Positions 1 to 10,295 of a stretch of 64,000 nucleotides of DNA are shown piece after piece. The DNA is from Candidatus Dependentiae bacterium UBA6230 (GTDB lineage: Bacteria; Babelota; Babeliae; Babelales; Vermiphilaceae): assembly GCA_002441565.1 (NCBI GenBank), contig DJWM01000002.1, positions 31,728-95,727 on the forward strand. Direction: 5' to 3'. The notes below the pieces were generated by a model. It did not search any database. It was not told the origin of the DNA and was given only the letters and a program-made list of their open reading frames with translations. Made by a program: the position numbers and the translations under genes. Each line of letters begins with the position of its first letter. Positions within the stretch are counted from its first letter, which is position 1.

Positions 1-1956
1 ACTAATGGCGTTGAAGCAACGCGAGCATTAGTTTCTGGCAAGCTTAAGGGTTCTGTGCAAGCGCTTGGATATTCCTGCTCTGGGCAGATTGTAGCGGTTG
101 GCAGTAAAGTACGTTCATTGCAGGTAGGCGATTTTGTGGCCTGTGCTGGTTCCGGTGCGGCTAATCATGCCGATATTGTGTGTGTGTCAGAAAATTTAAC
201 GGCTAAATTAAGCAGTGATGAGATACTAAAACATGCGAGTATCACCACACTCGGTGCCATTGCATTGCAAGGTATCCGTCGTGCACAGTTGCAGCTTGGT
301 GAGCAAGTTTGTGTTATAGGGCTCGGCCTTTTGGGTCAGATTACCGTGCAGCTTGCAGCACAATCAGGATGCAAGGTTTTTGGTGTTGATTTAGTACCTG
401 AGCGATTAAATCTTGCGCATCAACTTGGCGCACATCATGTGTACGATGCACGAAATCCGCAATTTATCCAGGATATTATTTTTGCAACGCAGCATCAGGG
501 CGCTGATGTTACCCTTATAACGGCTGGATCAAAAAGTGATGTACTTGTGCAACAGGCTATGGAAATTACCCGCAAAAAGGGACGTGTAGTTGTTGTAGGT
601 GACGTGGGTCTTGGATTACAGCGCGAGCAGCTTTATAAAAAAGAAATAGATTTTCTTATTTCCTGTTCTTATGGTCCCGGACGTTATGATGTGCAGTATG
701 AGCAGCAAGGTATTGATTATCCTTATGCCTATGTGCGCTGGACTGAGCAACGCAATATGCAGGCATTTGTTGATTTGGTTGAACGTAAAAAAATAGTCAT
801 TGACCCTCTTATTGGCGTTGAAATTTCAGTTGATCATGTTGAAAAGGCTTACGAACAACTGGCCCAACAAAAAGGACTTGGCGCTGTGCTGACTTATGAT
901 ACCAAGTGGTCTGATAGTGCTAAGCCAAAAATATCGTGTGTAAATACCAATATTCAGTTTATTCCGGCTATTCATGATACGCTGCGTGTTGGCGTTGTTG
1001 GTGCTGGGGGATTTGCAAAAATTAAGCTTATGCCTATTTTGGCTAAATTACGCAATATTCAGATTCATGCAGTTGTTGACCCAGATGCAGCAAATGCGTT
1101 GAGCGTATCCCGGCAGTATAATGCTCGTTTAAATCTGAGTAGCGATGCGGACCTTTTTTCGCAGGATTTGGTCGATGCGGTGGTTATTGCTTCTCCTCAC
1201 AAGTATCACACTGAGCAGGCACTCAAGGCTTTGGAGCGAGGTAAGGCGGTATTTTTAGAAAAGCCGATGGCGACAACCCTAGAGCAGTATCAACAGCTCT
1301 ATGAATTTTTAGAACATAATCCACAGGCACGTTTTTGTGTTGATTATAATCGATCATTTGCGCCATTTATACGAAAAATTAAAGAAGCAATAAGTGAACG
1401 TTCAACGCCAGTGATGATTCATTATCGGATGAATGCTGGATTCTTGCCCAAAGATCATTGGGTGCAGATGGAATTAGGCGCTGGAAGAATTATTGGTGAA
1501 GCGTGTCACATTATTGATCTATTTTATTATCTTACCGATTCTAGGCCTTTATCGATTTCCGTGGAAACACTTGGTGCACTGCGCAGCGATTTGTGTCCGA
1601 CTGATAATATTTCGGCGCACATTCGTTTTGATGATGGATCCGTATGTTCGTTGCTGTATACCGCCCTTGGTAACGCAAGGATGGGAAAAGAGCGTATGGA
1701 AGTTTTCTTTGATGGTAAAAGTATCGTGATGGATGATTATGTACAATTGACAGGATATGGTCTTGATCGATCATTTGATCAAGTAGTTCGCACGCCAGAT
1801 AAGGGGCATGAAGCATTAATACGCATGTTTTTTACCCAGGTGCAACAAGAAATATTTGCGCCCCCAATACCATTTGATCGATTGAATCGTGTTGCGCAGT
1901 TAACGTTGCTAATCGATGAGCTTGCGTGCAAGGGCGGTGGAGAAAAAGAGTTGTAG
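1..1956 (+). CDS. bi-domain oxidoreductase (MDR/zinc-ADH-like N-half fused to Gfo/Idh/MocA C-half); 5' end runs off the window
   Basis: Frame 1 is open from base 1, so the GTG listed at 55 is not a demonstrated start. The N-half has an MDR-type nucleotide loop (VIGLGLLGQITVQLA). The C-half has the Rossmann start LRVGVVGAGGFA and the EKPMA motif typical of Gfo/Idh/MocA. Confidence 0.75.
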   Translation, partial: TNGVEATRALVSGKLKGSVQALGYSCSGQIVAVGSKVRSLQVGDFVACAGSGAANHADIVCVSENLTAKLSSDEILKHASITTLGAIALQGIRRAQLQLGEQVCVIGLGLLGQITVQLAAQSGCKVFGVDLVPERLNLAHQLGAHHVYDARNPQFIQDIIFATQHQGADVTLITAGSKSDVLVQQAMEITRKKGRVVVVGDVGLGLQREQLYKKEIDFLISCSYGPGRYDVQYEQQGIDYPYAYVRWTEQRNMQAFVDLVERKKIVIDPLIGVEISVDHVEKAYEQLAQQKGLGAVLTYDTKWSDSAKPKISCVNTNIQFIPAIHDTLRVGVVGAGGFAKIKLMPILAKLRNIQIHAVVDPDAANALSVSRQYNARLNLSSDADLFSQDLVDAVVIASPHKYHTEQALKALERGKAVFLEKPMATTLEQYQQLYEFLEHNPQARFCVDYNRSFAPFIRKIKEAISERSTPVMIHYRMNAGFLPKDHWVQMELGAGRIIGEACHIIDLFYYLTDSRPLSISVETLGALRSDLCPTDNISAHIRFDDGSVCSLLYTALGNARMGKERMEVFFDGKSIVMDDYVQLTGYGLDRSFDQVVRTPDKGHEALIRMFFTQVQQEIFAPPIPFDRLNRVAQLTLLIDELACKGGGEKEL

Positions 1957-1984
1957 TATAAAATGTTGATTGAAAGAGTCGGTT

Positions 1985-3418
1985 ATGAAGTATGAGCTGT
2001 TGAGTGGTATTATCAAAGCAAAGAAAGATACTGTTTTTTTTATAGCATGCATCGGTGTATACGTATTGCTTTCTAGCATTCTGTACTATGCTGCGCCACA
2101 AATCAGCTCGCATCTTGATATAGATTCTTTGTGGTACGACAAGTATGCATTCCATTTTTTTCAGAGCGGAAGTATCACGGCACCACACAGCCCAACTACG
2201 GCACCGGAGCACACCATTGGTTATCCTCTGATCATGAGTTTGATATATAGCGTGTTTGGGTATACGTTTACGCCCATCATCTTGATTCAGATAGTCTGCA
2301 TGATCATACTTATGTGGGCTTTATTTAATATGACGTATCGCTTGTTCGGCCCGCTATCGGCACGAATTGTTGCGGTATTGAGTATTTTCAATGTTGGAGT
2401 TCTTGTATATCCGCAATTTGTGCTTACTGAAACAATAGTAACGTGTTTGATCGTCTTATTTCTAGAACGTTTTACTCAATTTTGGCAAACCGGTTCACGC
2501 ATAGCCTTAACAGTTGGTGCGGCGTTTTTAGGGGCATCGCTTATTGTCAAGCCGGTGGCTCTGTATTTTATTCCTGTTGCCGCGTGCTTTGTTCCGTTGT
2601 ACGTGCCGGGAACTCGTAAAAAGCTTATGACGGTGCTCTTGTTTCTGACGATTGCGCTGACACCACTTGTAGGCTACATGACAAGAAACAAAGTGTTATA
2701 TAATCATTTCCACTTTGCTCCTGTGATAAGTATCAATCTCTATGAATGGTATTTGGTTAAAGTTATTGCTGCGGTGCATAATATTACGCCATCAGAAGCG
2801 GAACGGATGATCCCTCCGTTTCAAGCGAACAATGGACTTGATGAACATGGCTGGGAGCCCGCTAAAAAATTATTGTTAAGATACCTTGCGCATCATCCGT
2901 TTACCTGTATTTCTGTGTGGATGAAAAATGTGATGAAGACAGCTTTGGGCCTTTTTAGTACACATTTAAAACTATTGCTCAATCCCATGTTGCGTGGTGG
3001 TGATATCACTTTTTTTTCTGGTACCGGTTCTTGGTGGGACAAAATAGTAACATATGTCAGTTCTGGTGCTCCTAATAGGCTAGTTGTTGTAATTTCGGCA
3101 GCGGAAGGTATATGGAGCATTTTGCGGTGGATGCTTATAATGTCTGCCAGTATGTTATTGTGGCTACGTAAACGATACGCACTACTTGCATTTTTTATGC
3201 TTTTTGTTTTGTACAATCTTATGATTACTGGTCACGATGGTTGTGGCCGTTATCGTTTTACCATTGAGCCTGAACTTATTATGTTAACTGCATTTTCATT
3301 AGCAGCATGGTGGGATATTTTAATGCAGCGACGAGTTCGTGAGGTTGGTGTATCAGCTTACAACCATTATGCACCTATGCCTGTGGTTTCCTATCAATCA
3401 AAGAGTCGTGAGCGTTAA
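1985..3418 (+). CDS. polytopic membrane protein, GT-C fold glycosyltransferase-like (GT39 / ArnT-PMT-like)
   Basis: More than 10 hydrophobic segments. An acidic first loop (HLDIDSLWYDKYA) follows TM1, as in ArnT/PMT-type GT-C enzymes. ATG at 1985 is preceded by AAAGAG; an alternative TTG lies at 1970. It sits inside a nucleotide-sugar operon. Confidence 0.5.
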   Translation: MKYELLSGIIKAKKDTVFFIACIGVYVLLSSILYYAAPQISSHLDIDSLWYDKYAFHFFQSGSITAPHSPTTAPEHTIGYPLIMSLIYSVFGYTFTPIILIQIVCMIILMWALFNMTYRLFGPLSARIVAVLSIFNVGVLVYPQFVLTETIVTCLIVLFLERFTQFWQTGSRIALTVGAAFLGASLIVKPVALYFIPVAACFVPLYVPGTRKKLMTVLLFLTIALTPLVGYMTRNKVLYNHFHFAPVISINLYEWYLVKVIAAVHNITPSEAERMIPPFQANNGLDEHGWEPAKKLLLRYLAHHPFTCISVWMKNVMKTALGLFSTHLKLLLNPMLRGGDITFFSGTGSWWDKIVTYVSSGAPNRLVVVISAAEGIWSILRWMLIMSASMLLWLRKRYALLAFFMLFVLYNLMITGHDGCGRYRFTIEPELIMLTAFSLAAWWDILMQRRVREVGVSAYNHYAPMPVVSYQSKSRER

Positions 3419-3420
3419 AA

Positions 3421-4530
3421 ATGAAAAATTTATTGACGATTATAGTTGTTGGATCTCTGATGCAAATAGCTTGTGCGAATCAATCATCGACTGATCTGAA
3501 GAATGTGTATGCAGTAATTTTGGCTGGAGGAAGTGGAGAGCGGCTCTGGCCGTTGAGCCGCTTGCAGTTTCCAAAGCAATTGCTGTCCGTAGAAGAACAA
3601 AAAACGTTCTTGGATCAGGCGATAGAGCGCGTTTCCACTTTTATTCCCACATCCCATATTATGGTTAACACTACGCGCAATCATGCAGAACGTATTAGCC
3701 ATGCAGTGGGGAATCGAGTAGGCGATATTATTATTGAACCAGGGGCGCGTAATACTGGGCCCGCGATTTTGTATTGTTGTTTACGTTTGCATCAACAAGA
3801 TCCGGATGCTGTTGCGGTATTTTTGCCGGCAGATCATTATATTTCTGTAAATGCTAAATTTGTTGAATTTTTGGGGCATGCAATTGCCTATGCGATGCAT
3901 CATGATCGCATTGTGCTCATGGGGCTTCAACCCAAATATCCAGCAACAGGGTATGGTTATATTGAATATGATCCAGCACTTGTATCCGAGTACAATGGCG
4001 TAGTTCCAGTTAAAAAATTTCATGAAAAACCCGTATATGATATTGCACAGGCTTATGTAACTGCAGGGAACATGCTTTGGAATGCGGGAATATTTTGTGC
4101 TAAGGTATCGGTATTTTTGAACGAATTTAAGACTCATGCACCGGAGATGTATCAGGGAGTGATTAAATCGTTAGATGACACCGATTGTTATCACCAGGTG
4201 GTATCTGAGTCAGTTGACTATGCCATCATGGAAAAAAGTGAACAGATCAGTGTGCTTCCGGCGGATTTTCCTTGGTGTGATATTGGTAATGTTGAAATAT
4301 TTTTATCGCTCAAGGAGCAAAAGCAATCTACAAACAGGCGGGTAATTACGTATGAATCACATAATAGCCTTGTTGATGTTCCAGATAGATTAGTTGCTCT
4401 TGTTGGTGTTGATGATTTGTGTGTGGTTGATACCGGTGAAATTCTTCTTGTGGCCAAGAGACAAGAGGCTGAAAAAGTGAAAATGATTGTACAGGCGCTC
4501 AAAGATATGAAGGCGTATGAGTATTTGTAG
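3421..4530 (+). CDS. manC: mannose-1-phosphate guanylyltransferase (GDP-mannose pyrophosphorylase) with a hydrophobic N-terminal leader
   Basis: AVILAGGSGERLWPLSR...PKQLL nucleotidyltransferase signature, and about 350 aa of ManC-like sequence. ATG at 3421 lies 2 nt after the upstream stop. An alternative internal ATG at 3460 would remove most of the leader. Confidence 0.85.
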   Translation: MKNLLTIIVVGSLMQIACANQSSTDLKNVYAVILAGGSGERLWPLSRLQFPKQLLSVEEQKTFLDQAIERVSTFIPTSHIMVNTTRNHAERISHAVGNRVGDIIIEPGARNTGPAILYCCLRLHQQDPDAVAVFLPADHYISVNAKFVEFLGHAIAYAMHHDRIVLMGLQPKYPATGYGYIEYDPALVSEYNGVVPVKKFHEKPVYDIAQAYVTAGNMLWNAGIFCAKVSVFLNEFKTHAPEMYQGVIKSLDDTDCYHQVVSESVDYAIMEKSEQISVLPADFPWCDIGNVEIFLSLKEQKQSTNRRVITYESHNSLVDVPDRLVALVGVDDLCVVDTGEILLVAKRQEAEKVKMIVQALKDMKAYEYL

Positions 4531-4574
4531 TATTCCAGTCAGGTGTACATGAGGTATAAAAAGAGGAGCTTTTC

Positions 4575-5648
4575 GTGAAACGAGCGTTAATAACGGGTAT
4601 TACCGGTCAAGATGGTTCGTATTTATCGGAATTATTACTGGCGCAAGGCTATGAAGTGCACGGTATTAAACGTCGCTCCTCGTCATTCAATACCAGTCGA
4701 GTGGATCATTTATTCGAGTCAATGCATGCGCGCTTCTTCTTGCATTATGGTGATATGACAGACGCAACCAATCTCATTCGCATTGTTCAAGAAGTTTGTC
4801 CGGATGAAATTTATAACCTTGCAGCACAAAGCCACGTGGCAGTTTCATTTGAAACGCCTGAATATACTGCTCAAGCAGATGCATTGGGAGTATTACGATT
4901 ACTTGAAGCAATACGCATTTTGGGTCTTGTAGAAAAAACACGTTTTTATCAAGCTTCAACGAGTGAACTTTTTGGTAAAGTACAGGAAATTCCTCAATCT
5001 GAATCAACTCCTTTTTATCCTCGTTCTCCTTATGCAGTGGCGAAGCTCTACGCTTACTGGATCACTAAAAATTATCGAGAAGCGTATGGGTTATTTGCCT
5101 GTAATGGCATATTATTCAACCACGAATCTCCACGTCGTGGAGAAACGTTTGTAACTCGTAAAATCACACGTGCTGTTGCACGTATTCATTGCGGCATGCA
5201 ACAACGTTTGTATTTAGGAAATCTCGATGCGAGGCGTGACTGGGGGCATGCTGAAGATTATGTGCGTGCCATGTGGCTTATGATGCAGCACAACGAACCA
5301 CTTGATTTAGTAGTTGCAACTGGTCATACACATTCGGTGCGTGAGTTTGTGGAGCGAGCATTTTTAGAGATTGGCATCACCATCATGTGGCAAGGAGCTG
5401 GAGTACAGGAAGTGGGTGTCAATGCACAGACAGGTACAACACTTGTTGCCGTTGATCCACGGTATTTTAGGCCAACTGAAGTAGATGTGTTACTTGGAGA
5501 TGCACGCAAGGCGCGAGAAATTTTGGGATGGGAACCACGCGTTTCGTTCCAGGAGCTTGTGCATGAAATGGTTGCTGAGGATTTAAGAGCATGCATTGAG
5601 CAGAAAAATACTATAGGTGATAGTGCTACATGTTATGAAGTGAGATAG
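4575..5648 (+). CDS. gmd: GDP-mannose 4,6-dehydratase (copy 1, no leader)
   Basis: [57 protein letters not shown] and [17 protein letters not shown] are classic Gmd motifs. GTG start is preceded by GAGGAG at 6 nt. Confidence 0.95.
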
Positions 5649-5651
5649 AAT

Positions 5652-6791
5652 ATGATGCTAAAAGTAGTAATGATAGCAAGATGTGCGGTTTTTTTGCCAT
5701 TGGTGATGTGTTTAGATTTGTCTGCCAAAGTCGCCTTAATACTAGGAATAACGGGGCAGGATGGATCATATCTTACCGAATTTTTACTTGAGAAAGGATA
5801 CGAAGTTCACGGTATTAAACGCCGCTCTTCATCTTTTAATACCTCACGAATAGATCATGTGTATAAAGATCCCCATGAGCGTGTATCCGGTCGGGGACTG
5901 GTACTTCACTATGGCGATATTACTGATGCTGCCAATATGATTTACCTTATTGCAAAAATAAAACCGGACGAAATCTACAATCTTGCGGCTCAAAGTCATG
6001 TTCTGGTTTCTTTTGAACTCCCTTACTATACTGCCCAAGTTGATGGGCTTGGTACGTTGAATGTGCTTGAAGCGATTCGGTCGTTGGGATGGGAACACCA
6101 AGTGAAATTTTATCAAGCATCCACCAGCGAACTCTATGGTAAGGTGCAAGAAATACCGCAATCAGAATTAACACCATTTTATCCTCGATCTCCTTATGGT
6201 GTTGCGAAATTATATGGTTTTTGGATTACCAAAAATTATCGAGAAGCTTATGGTATGTTCGCATGCAATGGCATTTTATTTAATCACGAATCACCACGTC
6301 GTGGAGAAACATTTGTAACACGCAAAATTACCCGTGCTGTGGCACGTATCGCACTTGGTTATGATGAAATCTTATATCTGGGTAATCTTGATGCGAGGCG
6401 TGATTGGGGACATGCGCGTGACTATATTGAAGCGATGTGGCTTATGCTGCAACAGGACGAGCCGGATGATTTTGTTATTGCAAGCGGACATATGCACTCA
6501 GTTCGTGAATTTGTTCAGTGTGCATTTCATGAAATTGGTATTACTATCGCATGGCGTGGAAGCGGATTAGAGGAAGAAGGATGCGATGCTAAGACCGGTA
6601 AGGTTTGGGTAAAGATTGATCCACGCTATCTGCGACCTTCAGAAGTTGAACTGCTTATTGGTAATGCAAGTAAAGCGCGAGATATCTTAGGTTGGGAACC
6701 TAAGATATCGTTTTGCGAACTTGTGCAAGAAATGGTTGCGTGTGACAGAGAGTTGCTACATACAGAGCCGCGGATGCGCAGTGCTCAGTAG
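5652..6791 (+). CDS. gmd: GDP-mannose 4,6-dehydratase (copy 2, tandem paralog, with a hydrophobic N-terminal leader)
   Basis: Carries the same Gmd motifs as copy 1, and the two read as closely similar along their length by eye. The extra N-terminus is [26 protein letters not shown]. An alternative in-frame ATG at 5706 would remove most of it. Confidence 0.9.
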
Positions 6792-6805
6792 AAGAGGGAT
6801 ACGCT

Positions 6806-7876
6806 ATGCAAAAAATAAATATGGCCATTGTGTTGATATATCTTATGATGCTAGTAACTGCTACCGTGTATGGTGAGAATTTTCAGATTGATAAGGTATC
6901 ACATATGAATGATCAGAATGCCAAAATTTACATTGCAGGGCATGGTGGGCTTGTTGGCAGTGCATTATGCAGAAGGCTGCGCGATCTTGGTTTTTGCAAC
7001 ATTATCACTCGAGGTCATCAAGAGCTCGATTTGCGAAACCAACAGGCTGTCGATGATTTTTTTGCGTGCGAAAAGCCAGAGTATGTATTTTTGGCAGCCG
7101 CTAAAGTTGGGGGAATCGTTGCAAACAGCTCGTATCCGGCTGAATTTATCTACGACAATCTTATGATTAGTGCCAATGTAATTCATGCGGCGTATAAATA
7201 TGGCGTTAAAAAATTATTATTTCTAGGGTCTTCATGTATTTATCCACGTATGTGTCCTCAGCCGATCAAGGAAGAATATCTACTTACCGGACCTCTTGAG
7301 TGGACAAATGAGCCGTATGCGTTAGCAAAGATCGCCGGTATTAAATTGTGTCAATCATATAATAAGCAGTATGGAACCAACTTTATCTCCTGTATGCCGA
7401 CCAATCTTTACGGAATAGGCGATAATTTTGATCTACAGAATTCGCATGTTATTCCTGGGCTTATAGCCAAAATTCATCAAGCCAAAATGCGTGGTGATCG
7501 TAGTGTTGTGTTGTGGGGTACTGGTACGCCACTTCGTGAGTTTTTGTATGTGGATGATTTGGCAGAAGCCTGTATTTTTTTGATGCATCATTATGATGGG
7601 CTTGATCATATTAACGTTGGCTCCGGGCAAGAAATTTCAATTGCAGAGTTAGCTGCATGTGTTAAGGAAGTTGTTGGCTTTGATGGCGAAATCATCTTTG
7701 ATACAACCAAGCCAGATGGCACACCGCGAAAACTGCTTGATACGACAAGACTTGCACAACTTGGTTGGCGTGCTCAAGTTAGCTTGCATGAAGGATTGCG
7801 AGCCATGTATGCATGGTATCTTGCGCAAGACATGGTCAGGGGCGAGTCGTCATCACGATCATCATGTGCTCAGTAA
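6806..7876 (+). CDS. fcl: GDP-L-fucose synthase (GDP-4-keto-6-deoxymannose 3,5-epimerase/4-reductase) with a hydrophobic N-terminal leader
   Basis: [14 protein letters not shown] Rossmann start, [21 protein letters not shown] and [10 protein letters not shown] (YxxxK) are typical of Fcl/WcaG. ATG at 6806 is preceded by GAGGGA at 6 nt. An alternative ATG at 6905 gives a canonical-length protein. Confidence 0.9.
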
Positions 7877-7989
7877 AAGTAATAATGCACGGCCCTAGTT
7901 TCAACTCACTACCGGTTTAATGCATTGCTGTAATTACCTGTGTTATGCTAGCGCGAGAATGAAGGCAACAAAGGAGAGTGAGGTATCTC

Positions 7990-9387
7990 ATGATTGGAGT
8001 TTCGCTCATAATTTTTGGTGCAGCAGGTGATTTAGCCAAGCGCAAATTGATTCCTGCGTTATATGCATTATTTAAACAAAAAAAATTATCCTCATGTGTT
8101 ATGATTGGCTGTGCTGTTACCAATACCACGGCACAAGAAATTCTTCATGAAGCTAAGAAATTTGTGGGTGAGGTTGACGAAGCCATTTGGCACGCATTTT
8201 CCTCATTGTTTTATTATCAAGCGGGTGTTCGTTTTACTCGAGAAGCTGATATTGCTGCATTCCATCAGTATGTGTGTGAGATAGAACAGCAGCATAATCT
8301 TGGTAATAAGCGACTCATATATTGTGCGTTTTCTTCTGATTATTTTTGTGAACTTACCCATCTTATCGGAAAAACAAAATTGGCTCAGCGATCTTGTGAG
8401 GTGCCTCTCGGCTGGCATCGCATTGTGTACGAAAAACCTTTTGGTAAAGATTTAACATCAGCACGTGAGATTAATAAGTGCATAGCGCATTACTTTGATG
8501 AAGAACAAATTTATCGCATTGATCATTATTTAACTAAAGAATTGGCAGGAAACATTGCATTATTGCGTTTCACCAACTGTATATTTGAGCCACTCTGGGA
8601 TAATCGTTATATCGATAATGTGCAAATTATTGTAGATGAGTCCTACACGGTATCTGGGCGAGGTCTTTATTATGACAAGTATGGTGCGTTGCGCGATATG
8701 GTACAAAACCACATTATGGAATTGATCGCACTCATTGCCATGGAGCCGCCTACCAAATTAGAAGCGGAACAAATTCGCTCAGAACGTGCGTACGCATTGC
8801 AATTCATTCACTATGTTGACGGCATACTGGGTCAATATCAGGGATATCGCGATGAGCCAGGTGTTGACCCCGATTCAACGACAGAAACATGGGCAAGTTT
8901 AATGGTTGCTTTGGAAAATCCTCGCTGGTCTGGAGTTCCTTTTTATGTAAGGACCGGTAAAGCTATGCAAAAAAAAGAAACGGTGATTCATATCGTGTTT
9001 AAATCAGTTGAGTGTCTGTTGGTACATGGTTGCCCGGTACCGGCCAATTATTTGACTATTCGCATAGATCCAGACGCTGGTTTTACATTATATCTCAATG
9101 CAAAAAAGCCAGGATCTATGCAAGAAATAATCCCGGTTGCTATGGATTTTTGCCATAGCTGTTTATATGCACAGGCAACGCCGCGCCCGTACGAAATTTT
9201 ATTAGAAGAAGTGCTGCGTGGTACGCAAACAGTGGTAGTAAGGTTTGATGAAATAGAACAAGCTTGGCGTATTATCGATGAAATTAGAGCAAAAAATTTA
9301 CCCGTCTATCAGTATGCACAGGGTAGTTGCGGACCAAAGGAATTTCAGGAATTTTCTCAAAGACATGGCATAGGATGGCGCTCATGA
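7990..9387 (+). CDS. zwf: glucose-6-phosphate 1-dehydrogenase
   Basis: IFGAAGDLAKRKLIPALY dinucleotide motif, the RIDHYLTKE active-site signature, and the MVQNH block. ATG at 7990 follows GAGG. The ORF-track start at 7978 (GTG) lies too close to the SD. Confidence 0.93.
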   Translation: MIGVSLIIFGAAGDLAKRKLIPALYALFKQKKLSSCVMIGCAVTNTTAQEILHEAKKFVGEVDEAIWHAFSSLFYYQAGVRFTREADIAAFHQYVCEIEQQHNLGNKRLIYCAFSSDYFCELTHLIGKTKLAQRSCEVPLGWHRIVYEKPFGKDLTSAREINKCIAHYFDEEQIYRIDHYLTKELAGNIALLRFTNCIFEPLWDNRYIDNVQIIVDESYTVSGRGLYYDKYGALRDMVQNHIMELIALIAMEPPTKLEAEQIRSERAYALQFIHYVDGILGQYQGYRDEPGVDPDSTTETWASLMVALENPRWSGVPFYVRTGKAMQKKETVIHIVFKSVECLLVHGCPVPANYLTIRIDPDAGFTLYLNAKKPGSMQEIIPVAMDFCHSCLYAQATPRPYEILLEEVLRGTQTVVVRFDEIEQAWRIIDEIRAKNLPVYQYAQGSCGPKEFQEFSQRHGIGWRS

Positions 9388-10295
9388 ATATTGGAATCAT
9401 TGGCTTAGGAGTTATGGGCAGTGCCATTGCTCATAGGGCGATAAAAGCAGGTTTTGATGTTGTAGGATTTGATACGCATATTGAACACGCACGGCGTGCA
9501 CGGATGATGGGGGTAAACATTGTGGAATATGCGCCGCTTGTTGCCGGCAACGCACGAATTATTTGGTTAATGTTACCGGCAGGGCCCGTAGTTGATCAGG
9601 TAATTCAAGAATTGCGGCCAATGTTACATGCAGGCGATATTATTATCGATGGTGGCAATAGTTTTTTTCAGGATTCTGTACGTCGTTATCAAACATTACA
9701 AAAAGATGAAATCTTTTTTGTTGATTGTGGTACGTCTGGCGGATTACATGGCAGAGATAATGGCTTTTGTTTGATGGTTGGAGGTGATTTTCAGATCTTC
9801 GAACGATTAGAACCGCTTTTAAAAGCTATAGCTGCGCCAGATGGGTATGCGTATGTTGGTCCATCCGGTGCAGGTCATTACGTTAAAATGGTACATAATG
9901 GAATAGAGTATGCGCTTATGCAGGCATATGCCGAAGGCTTTCATCTTCTTAAGGATGGCTATTATGCGGATCTTGATCTTGCAGCGATTGCGCGTGTGTG
10001 GGAGCATGGCTCTATTGTCCGATCTTGGTTGCTACAATTACTGCGTGAAGTCATGCAAGAAGATCAGGATTTGCATGAAATTTCTGGTCGTGTTGATCAG
10101 GGTGGCACGGGAAGATGGACGGCACAAGAAGCGCATGCACGCAATGTTCCTATGCCGTGTCTCGAACGAGCTCTTGCTGTGCGTAGTTGGTCACATAAAA
10201 CAACCGGCAATTATACTACTAAACTTGTAGCACTTATGCGTAATAAATTTGGTGGACATCGTGTGTATAAAAGAAGTGAAGATATTCCTGTATGA
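9384..10295 (+). CDS. gnd: 6-phosphogluconate dehydrogenase, decarboxylating, short (about 300 aa) form
   Basis: MNIGIIGLGVMGSAIA Rossmann start and the GAGHYVKMVHNGIEYALMQ signature. Its start ATG overlaps the zwf stop as ATGA (9384-9387). Confidence 0.88.
   Translation: MNIGIIGLGVMGSAIAHRAIKAGFDVVGFDTHIEHARRARMMGVNIVEYAPLVAGNARIIWLMLPAGPVVDQVIQELRPMLHAGDIIIDGGNSFFQDSVRRYQTLQKDEIFFVDCGTSGGLHGRDNGFCLMVGGDFQIFERLEPLLKAIAAPDGYAYVGPSGAGHYVKMVHNGIEYALMQAYAEGFHLLKDGYYADLDLAAIARVWEHGSIVRSWLLQLLREVMQEDQDLHEISGRVDQGGTGRWTAQEAHARNVPMPCLERALAVRSWSHKTTGNYTTKLVALMRNKFGGHRVYKRSEDIPV

Follow-up and report, generated by a model that had tools for sequence, protein, structure and literature searches.

The window analysed here is a 64,000-nucleotide stretch, corresponding to contig C4:31728-95727 of a 1.02-Mb, five-contig genome (G000) of a protist-parasitic Dependentiae (Babeliales) bacterium, and it contains an operon for GDP-L-fucose synthesis in which three of the four enzymes, ManC, Gmd2 and Fcl, carry an N-terminal leader. 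The leaders are real; they keep the same kind of design among relatives, evolve under selection, are served by ribosome-binding sites, and have the dimensions of signal peptides and not those of membrane anchors. Bacterial nucleotide-sugar synthesis is treated as strictly cytoplasmic, and since ManC is among the leadered proteins, the whole branch from mannose-1-phosphate is tagged. We are confident that the leaders are translated and function as targeting signals, and judging from their design, at least part of each enzyme probably crosses the inner membrane. The explanation that we favour on balance is that Sec-type leaders are translated from the first ATGs and that the enzymes are exported. 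The operon comprises the following features:

3421..4530, + strand: ManC, monofunctional mannose-1-phosphate guanylyltransferase with a predicted signal peptide (PF00483, residues 31-300; PF22640)
3421..3477, + strand: ManC leader MKNLLTIIVVGSLMQIACA, predicted cut after A-C-A19, followed by a 10-residue linker and then strand beta1
4562..4568, + strand: strong Shine-Dalgarno (SD) site AGAGGAG of Gmd1 (-8.3 kcal/mol duplex energy with the anti-SD sequence)
4575..5648, + strand: Gmd1, leaderless GDP-mannose 4,6-dehydratase with a GTG start (TIGR01472, 599.1 bits against a cut-off of 415, residues 2-339)
5637..5645, + strand: SD-like site GAAGTGAGA for the Gmd2 long start, within the last Gmd1 codons (-5.0 kcal/mol; kept in the same-genus genome)
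5652..6791, + strand: Gmd2, GDP-mannose 4,6-dehydratase with a predicted signal peptide (TIGR01472, 586.4 bits against 415, residues 26-367)
5652..5726, + strand: Gmd2 leader, predicted cut after L-S-A25, the mature start K26 being the canonical Gmd N-terminus
6792..6799, + strand: SD site AAGAGGGA for the Fcl long start (-6.3 kcal/mol; identical in the same-genus genome)
6806..7876, + strand: Fcl, GDP-L-fucose synthase with a predicted signal peptide (NF047922, 509.8 bits against 500, residues 38-342)
6806..6874, + strand: Fcl leader, predicted cut after V-Y-G23
6905..6907, + strand: retained ancestral Fcl start codon (Met34), with a weak AAGG upstream (-4.0 kcal/mol)

An initial annotation of this DNA had identified the operon as encoding the ManC, Gmd and Fcl route, and the assignment holds, with profile scores above their cut-offs and motifs intact. 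In ManC, both PF00483 (122 bits) and the ManC beta-helix domain PF22640 (49 bits) exceed their cut-offs, and the motifs GGSGERLWP and EKP are readable in the sequence. Assignment of ManC to the bifunctional GMP/PMI family TIGR01479 was rejected: the score is 261 bits against 372.95, the match covers only profile positions 2-352 of 467, and the last residue of the protein is 369. The C-terminal mannose-6-phosphate isomerase domain is missing, and the alignment to TIGR01479, which starts at residue 30, is confined to the GMP part. Both Gmd copies contain the NADP-binding GxTGQDG motif and the catalytic motifs, including SPY(A/G)VAKLY, in columns that are invariant in a 39-sequence alignment, and we take S/T...E and YxxxK to have the catalytic roles that they have in the E. 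coli enzyme. Fcl belongs to the GDP-4-keto-6-deoxymannose 3,5-epimerase / 4-reductase class and displays the motifs GSSCIYP, YALAK and NSHVIP; GSSCIYP, Y171-A-x-A-K175 and H214 are invariant in a 40-sequence alignment. ManC and Fcl are each the sole match in the genome, and hence its only ManC and its only Fcl. By these profiles and motifs, ManC, Gmd2 and Fcl are ordinary, catalytically intact enzymes behind an added leader.

The two Gmd copies had been said to differ mainly by the leader, which turned out to be incorrect. They are only 71% identical, and Gmd1 clusters on the Gmd tree with leaderless copies from G003, G013 and G017, while Gmd2 sits within a large, mostly leadered clade; this degree of identity and the placement in different clades mark them as old paralogues and rule out a recent tandem duplication of gmd. 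Basidiomycete Gmd proteins (Trametes, Pilatotrama; P0058, P0071, P0077, P0103, P0107) are among the top matches of Gmd2 with 70-71% identity. The tree places one of these proteins, with weak support, within the clade of mostly leadered Dependentiae copies. A eukaryote-like type is possible for Gmd2.

The leaders are true N-terminal extensions, because the family profiles begin only after them. The extension past the family profile amounts to 29 residues in ManC, 25 in Gmd2 and 37 in Fcl, and there is none in Gmd1; TIGR01472 starts at residue 26 in Gmd2 and at residue 2 in Gmd1, NF047922 at residue 38 in Fcl, and TIGR01479 and PF00483 at residues 30-31 in ManC. The leader peptides and their positions, the gaps of 2, 3 and 14 nt between the long starts and the upstream stop codons, and the internal ATGs at 3460, 5706 and 6905 had all been reported correctly. 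So had the leaderless state of Gmd1, which cannot have a leader because an in-frame stop lies five codons upstream of its GTG at 4575, itself placed behind the strong AGAGGAG.

The design of the leaders, measured over 204 homologous leaders, is that of a cleavable Sec/signal peptidase I (SPase I) signal, and differs from what membrane anchors, Tat signals and lipoprotein signals look like. The n-region has 4-5 residues with a net charge of +1.5 to +1.8, the median length of the hydrophobic h-region is 12-14 residues, with 20 or more in only 3-7% of leaders, a small-residue site at -3/-1 is present in 98%, and the following 15 residues are approximately neutral. By our home-made rule, all three leaders in the window have the features of a Sec-type SPase I signal, namely positive charge in the n-region, about 7-15 hydrophobic residues in the h-region and a small residue at both -3 and -1. 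Three other signal types were considered and do not fit the leaders as a set. A twin-arginine (Tat) motif occurs in 0 of the 204 leaders and in none of the three window leaders; a lipobox-like motif of the lipoprotein (SPase II) type is found in about 3%, and the QIAC of ManC has no Leu, Val or Ile at -3; and an uncleaved signal-anchor is at odds with the scarcity of h-regions of at least 20 residues and with the lack of a linker in Gmd2, although the G000 Fcl leader, taken singly, is a borderline case because its uncharged stretch reaches 20 residues. AlphaFold2 places the two leaders modelled, those of Gmd2 and Fcl, outside the enzyme fold. In Gmd2, residues 1-20 have a pLDDT of 52-58 and strand beta1 spans residues 27-31, while in Fcl a helix at 6-23 is followed by a linker at 24-29 (pLDDT below 50) and by beta1 at 41-44. 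Furthermore, the predicted Gmd2 cut, L-S-A / K-V-A-L-I, leaves no linker, which means that an uncleaved helix would enter the buried first strand. Export machinery is encoded in the genome, which has SecY, one S26 peptidase (LepB), T2SS-F and two secretins.

Ribosome-binding sites point to translation from the long starts. In this genome 51% of crude starts have an SD site of -4 kcal/mol or better, compared with 12.6% of random positions, and 25 of 35 unique leadered orthologues have such a site at the long start (p = 2e-15 against the 12.6% background). The site in front of the Gmd2 leader has -5.0 kcal/mol and the one in front of the Fcl leader -6.3 kcal/mol; at the long start of ManC the value is only -2.6 kcal/mol, yet that start lies 2 nt past the upstream stop codon. 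At the internal Fcl Met, a site of -4 kcal/mol or better is present in 3 of 10 relatives, while the leaderless Fcl genes of other families have a strong one at the canonical Met. The ribosome-binding site has therefore moved with the start codon, being found at the long start in leadered genes and at the canonical Met in leaderless ones. Public records are inconsistent on these starts, as annotation pipelines disagree: the NCBI annotation of the same-genus ManC (P0242, JAHDWT010000010.1) begins at the internal Met, giving a protein of 356 aa from which the leader is lost, and the long starts are kept by other callers, including DFAST for the Fcl of strain Noda2021 (P0208, 335 aa).

Comparison with the same-genus genome indicates that the leaders are maintained as protein. 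All three have equal lengths in the two genomes with zero indels, and an indel of 1 nt sits in the 3-nt spacer before the Gmd2 ATG and outside the leader. Identity is 17/19 in the ManC leader, 15/25 in that of Gmd2 and 14/23 in that of Fcl, with omega values of 0.29, 0.52 and 0.33, respectively, against 0.05-0.08 in the mature parts. Pooled, the leaders have a ratio of non-synonymous to synonymous change (pN/pS) of about 0.49 versus 0.10 for the mature parts, and non-synonymous changes are fewer than synonymous ones (p = 0.014). By this measure of substitution, the leaders are under relaxed purifying selection. Variation within populations is too scarce for constraint on the leaders to be judged from strains, since near-identical metagenome strains differ by 0-8 single-nucleotide polymorphisms per 4.6 kb, with zero indels and zero variants within any leader.

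The leaders recur with the same design in 11-12 related genera, although their sequences cannot be aligned between genera. When tblastn matches in 30 related genomes were extended to the upstream stop, 11 of them proved to have a Met-initiated n-h-c leader on ManC and 12 to have one on a single Gmd, and for Fcl there were 12 such loci in 11 genomes. Similarly, among the best 120 homologues per enzyme from a collection of 5.8 billion proteins, leaders are present on 71 Gmd, 40 Fcl and 94 ManC proteins, the N-termini being those assigned by the original gene callers. The state of ManC and Fcl is coupled within genomes (both leadered in 9, both leaderless in 4, discordant in 0). Genome G013 (L005, L023, L042) is the sole clear exception to the all-or-none pattern, with ManC, Gmd1 and Fcl leaderless and one leadered Gmd2 in the operon. 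On a tree of 98 Gmd proteins the leadered state is strongly clustered, requiring 9 changes, a number as low as which was reached by none of 500 shuffles (mean 32.8).

Outside the phylum such leaders are nearly absent. In a survey of 80 named genome loci with the closest gmd genes, convincing leaders occurred on three contigs labelled as Dependentiae or Babeliales and on one labelled as Pseudomonadota, and the approximately 75 other loci yielded two marginal hits of the rule, a TTG-started AT-rich read-in and a weak 48-residue stretch. The Pseudomonadota-labelled contig (L088, CAYUHH010000002.1, 'uncultured Pseudomonadota bacterium') has 34% GC and encodes a leadered Gmd, MKKKIFFTLVFSFISLLHAKN, that pairs with a Dependentiae Gmd (SH-aLRT 95); it is probably mis-binned or mislabelled. 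The initial annotation had argued that the leaders are unlikely to be accidental read-in, and had proposed a comparison with orthologues as a check. Recurrence in relatives, SD sites at the long starts, selection and the lack of indels bear out the argument, and the orthologues of related genera do start upstream, with n-h-c leaders behind SD sites.

The initial annotation had also raised the possibility that the enzymes are exported, acting for example in the host compartment. Export stands as the most economical reading of a textbook Sec signal; we infer it, however, as we do cleavage, the final compartment and the source of the substrates. In the favoured model, the leader would carry the unfolded enzyme through SecYEG, and the single LepB of the genome would cut near the ancestral N-terminus, exactly there in the case of Gmd2. 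Their place of action would be beyond the bacterial cytoplasm, namely the periplasm or, by way of type II / secretin machinery or vesicles, a host-facing space. Host mannose-1-phosphate and GTP, or host GDP-mannose, would be converted there to GDP-fucose with the use of host NADP(H), and Gmd1, the old leaderless paralogue, would remain in the cytoplasm. That the enzymes act on host-supplied substrates is a tentative proposal, which we would put somewhat short of an even chance. A further reading, less likely than not, is that the full GDP-fucose branch runs in the periplasm or host cytosol on host GTP, sugar phosphates and NADPH, which would make it the bacterial counterpart of a Golgi-type or host-hijacking nucleotide-sugar pathway, with Gmd divided between compartments by duplication and Fcl by two starts.

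Several points weigh against export. Translocation and cleavage are predictions from the leaders, the leader rule is home-made and loose, with 38% of the crude proteome passing it, and the cross-genome comparisons are not phylogenetically independent. Fcl consumes NADPH and Gmd needs bound NADP+, neither of which is known to be present in the bacterial periplasm, and Sec-type leaders would imply that cofactor-binding enzymes are exported unfolded. Furthermore, a leaderless PMM/PGM-type mutase, Gmd1 and a GalE-like enzyme stand beside the sole, leadered ManC and Fcl, so that Gmd1 would have no substrate made by the cell itself if ManC were strictly exported, and zwf and gnd, makers of cytoplasmic NADPH, lie directly 3' of fcl. 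Pfam searches of the genome and of 20 relatives for GT11 and O-FucT fucosyltransferases gave no match in this genome, although the O-FucT search is uninformative because the control genomes gave no match either. Cysteine content was examined for depletion or a bias to even numbers, as a mark of an oxidising periplasm; cysteine is not depleted in the leadered enzymes and is even higher in Fcl (6.75 versus 4.42); this test does not discriminate here, because the whole secretome-like set of the genome is likewise not depleted (1.47% versus 1.43%). A search for a nucleotide-sugar transporter returned only a sub-threshold TPT-like match (19.4 bits against a cut-off of 30). With respect to the cofactors, bacteria with an obligate intracellular life take up ATP through the inner membrane, as well as NAD+ in one chlamydial case, which implies that host nucleotides do reach the periplasm.

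The looseness of the rule was assessed by a blind control, in which 40 random open reading frames of at least 250 aa were drawn with a fixed seed and annotated with Pfam before the leader flags were viewed. None of the 11 clear housekeeping cytoplasmic proteins was flagged (GyrA, Ile/Val-tRNA synthetase, DnaX, MnmG, alanine racemase, glucokinase, YicC, a recombinase, an rRNA methyltransferase, MoxR and a GT4 protein), in contrast to 11 of 13 orphan or effector-like proteins and most of the envelope proteins. The 38% pass rate is therefore a sign of a large orphan secretome and not of a leaky rule. In the window, LeuRS, UvrB, Tgt, transketolase, transaldolase and the gnd product are leaderless, and zwf alone among these proteins trips the rule, through its own Rossmann strand and without an extension. 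Among the nucleotide-sugar enzymes of the genome, ManC, Gmd2, Fcl and an SDR at C2:93035-94018 are leadered, and Gmd1, the GalE-like enzyme and a GT4 protein are leaderless. That three of four enzymes are leadered is not rare in itself given the 38% pass rate (p ~0.16), and gains its significance through the recurrence in relatives, the near-absence outside the phylum and the 0/11 housekeeping result.

Each gene might instead give two products, an exported long form and a cytoplasmic leaderless form made from the ancestral Met (6905 in Fcl and perhaps 3460 in ManC), which together with Gmd1 would provide a cytoplasmic pathway; this would extend the export explanation and does not exclude it, and we consider it rather unlikely. 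A second leaderless product would explain why Gmd1 and the mutase are leaderless beside the only ManC and the only Fcl, both leadered, and why the ancestral Met has been kept. The ancestral start Met before beta1, 6-7 residues ahead of it in Fcl, is retained in 36 of 40 leadered Fcl proteins (the other 4 have Ile) as opposed to 6 of 71 Gmd and 44 of 94 ManC proteins (Fisher's test for Fcl versus Gmd, p = 2e-18), and Gmd has often been duplicated into a leadered and a leaderless copy. In addition, the AAGG precedes 6905, about half of the genes in the genome start without a strong SD site, and there is a precedent in the phosphoglucomutase CT295 of Chlamydia, a housekeeping enzyme that also serves as a substrate of secretion (PMC9251005). 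The initial annotation had cautioned that the internal ATGs, 6905 among them, might yield leaderless proteins, which is upheld to the extent that the Fcl Met is so widely kept. However, the low frequency of SD sites at the internal Fcl Met (the 3 of 10 relatives given above), when leaderless Fcl genes have strong ones, argues against internal initiation, and in the ManC of G000 the internal Met is part of the h-region and lacks an SD site. The Met is also equally retained in G002, G009, G014, G015 and G022, whose only Gmd is leadered, and in which a cytoplasmic Fcl would therefore lack a substrate. Between two members of the genus, positions 6871-6923 contain 1 change against about 3.4 synonymous changes expected, which is not significant.

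The leaders could also be uncleaved tethers that keep the catalytic domains on the cytoplasmic side of the inner membrane, in a GDP-sugar assembly line beside the GT-C glycosyltransferase encoded upstream. Such an arrangement would suit the cytoplasmic location of the substrates, of NADPH, of the mutase and of Gmd1, as well as the positions of zwf and gnd after fcl and the translational coupling of ManC to the GT-C membrane enzyme across a 2-nt gap. In the Fcl leader of G000, 20 consecutive residues are uncharged and AlphaFold2 models an 18-residue helix followed by a flexible linker, and PglF, WbpM and CapD are examples of membrane-anchored SDR sugar-nucleotide dehydratases. Nevertheless, tethering is improbable, and the 'membrane-tethered' enzymes of the initial annotation are a poor fit. 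The positive charge is N-terminal and the downstream flank neutral, which predicts an N-in / C-out orientation with the domain translocated; h-regions with a median of 12-14 residues are too short for a stable transmembrane helix, the Gmd leaders stop 1-5 residues before beta1 with no linker between, and the -3/-1 cleavage motif is nearly universal.

A start-site artefact, with translation from 3460, 5706 and 6905 and an upstream read-in that is hydrophobic through AT- and T-rich DNA, has very little to recommend it: the NCBI pipeline does place the same-genus ManC start at the internal Met, and AT-rich regions upstream of some Bacteroidota gmd genes also translate as hydrophobic (hence the 2 marginal false positives in ~75 loci), but open, Met-initiated, charged n-h-c frames are present in more than 10 genera and about 200 database homologues, most leadered Gmd proteins have no internal start codon at all before beta1, and the SD sites, the substitution pattern and the clustering on the Gmd tree all speak against it.

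Export of the enzymes, the explanation favoured here, has its closest demonstrated parallel in Chlamydia trachomatis, which secretes glycogen enzymes (GlgA and others) by type 3 secretion to run a pathway on host UDP-glucose (Gehre et al. 2016, PMC4829429), and which also secretes the phosphoglucomutase CT295 by the same system (PMC9251005). In both cases an obligate intracellular bacterium has added a secretion signal to housekeeping sugar enzymes, with a pathway placed, here presumably, outside its own cytoplasm. The chlamydial signal is, however, a type 3 signal and export has been demonstrated experimentally, whereas here the signal is of the Sec/SPase I type and export is what we infer from it. 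In addition, the chlamydial pathway consumes a nucleotide sugar, while ManC, Gmd and Fcl make or interconvert one and need NADP(H). Within the same phylum, 44% of the coding sequences of Chromulinavorax destructans have predicted signal peptides (Deeg et al. 2019, PMC6561590), compared to the 38% of crude open reading frames passing our rule, and orphans, ankyrin proteins and hydrolases are over-represented among the proteins with signals, for which Sec has been proposed as the route. The abundance of signal peptides in Dependentiae generally is thus already published (PMC6561590). That paper makes no mention of mannose, fucose or nucleotide-sugar enzymes; in the present genome it is a canonical cytoplasmic pathway that is tagged, with no housekeeping protein flagged in the blind control. 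Our literature search found no paper that connects Dependentiae with the metabolism of GDP-mannose or fucose.

The closest architectural parallel is found in plants, where paralogous SDR enzymes, the UDP-xylose synthases, are divided into leaderless cytosolic and targeted Golgi-lumenal forms (PMC6018967) in the same manner as Gmd1 and Gmd2. The plant enzymes differ in that they have uncleaved type II anchors and are accompanied by dedicated nucleotide-sugar transporters, in place of which this genome offers only the weak TPT-like match. The manC-gmd-fcl genes of the E. coli colanic-acid and O-antigen clusters share families, chemistry and operon linkage with the present locus. Unlike here, leaders are lacking in the E. 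coli enzymes and at essentially all of the ~75 surveyed gmd loci from outside Dependentiae, and the E. coli ManC is bifunctional with a PMI domain; the locus in the window also differs in having neither Wzx/Wzy genes nor a recognisable fucosyltransferase. PglF, WbpM and CapD belong to the nucleotide-sugar 4,6-dehydratases and begin with hydrophobic segments; they have several transmembrane helices, and their catalytic domain is cytoplasmic. They resemble the leadered enzymes in their hydrophobic N-terminus and differ from them in that the leaders here consist of a single short h-region with a cleavage motif.

Selected leaders on these enzymes across a phylum of intracellular parasites raise the possibility that activated sugars are made or remodelled in a host-supplied compartment. 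If true, this would represent a new mode of metabolic parasitism, possibly serving surface or host-protein fucosylation; alternatively, Sec signals in Dependentiae may serve some role that is not yet understood. A cultured relative that has leadered Gmd and Fcl is available in strain Noda2021, which grows in Vermamoeba vermiformis (PMC8812299).

Positions 1-10295 of the window form a single co-directional gene row, consisting of an oxidoreductase, the GT-C transferase, ManC, Gmd1, Gmd2, Fcl, zwf and gnd. The neighbours of the four enzymes are:

1..1956, + strand: bi-domain oxidoreductase (zinc-ADH-like and GFO/IDH/MocA; Pfam PF00107, PF01408 and PF22725), leaderless
1970..3418, + strand: multi-pass GT-C glycosyltransferase (PMT_2 / ArnT-like; PF13231, 32.8 bits against a cut-off of 26.1)
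7978..9387, + strand: zwf, glucose-6-phosphate dehydrogenase, leaderless (PF00479 and PF02781)
9327..10295, + strand: gnd-like 6-phosphogluconate dehydrogenase, leaderless, start uncertain (PF03446 and PF00393)

The oxidoreductase opens the row and is truncated by the window start; its NCBIfam matches, to inositol and UDP-GlcNAc 3-dehydrogenase-like models, are sub-threshold only. The GT-C transferase has about 8 hydrophobic segments, and its stop codon lies 2 nt ahead of the ManC start. The true start of zwf is probably the ATG at 7990 rather than the first GTG at 7978, as judged from SD sites of -9.5 kcal/mol (AAAGGAGAG) and -3.8 kcal/mol, respectively.

The closest named relative of the organism is 'Candidatus Dependentiae bacterium isolate DEP1', with a Gmd2 identity of 92%. 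Metagenomes of sediment, wastewater, biofilm, bioreactor and hydrocarbon origin, belonging to at least 9 studies, contain strains that are near-identical over window positions 3300-7900, and the organism is cosmopolitan across natural and engineered waters. The operon is also found in environmental metatranscriptome contigs from sludge and sediment, some of which span gene junctions and leaders (5590-5749 and 5650-5868 at the Gmd2 leader, 6552-6819 and 6826-7045 at the Fcl leader); such contigs cannot place translation starts, and DNA carry-over is possible.

Leaders were also observed on other proteins of this genome. The fourth nucleotide-sugar SDR, the leadered one at G000:C2:93035-94018, lies on the minus strand outside the window, matches GalE/TviC-like models best, and has a 39-residue extension, MKIRYILGIIVLSQLSVIQG, before its Epimerase domain, with a Met pair just before beta1; the adjoining FAD-type gene (477 aa) is leaderless. 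In the window, positions 61432-63159 on the minus strand encode a 574-aa protein with a hydrophobic N-terminus (from Met11: MIIRRLSTKISTYILLALSCINSV) and a DnaJ domain at residues 242-287. Both this J-domain protein and a PPP phosphatase of the window are leadered, and their usual partners are cytosolic. In the blind sample, N-terminal leader extensions are carried by an AAA ATPase (G000:C1:191197-192252, domain from residue 81) and by a HAD hydrolase (G000:C4:140435-141226, domain from residue 39).

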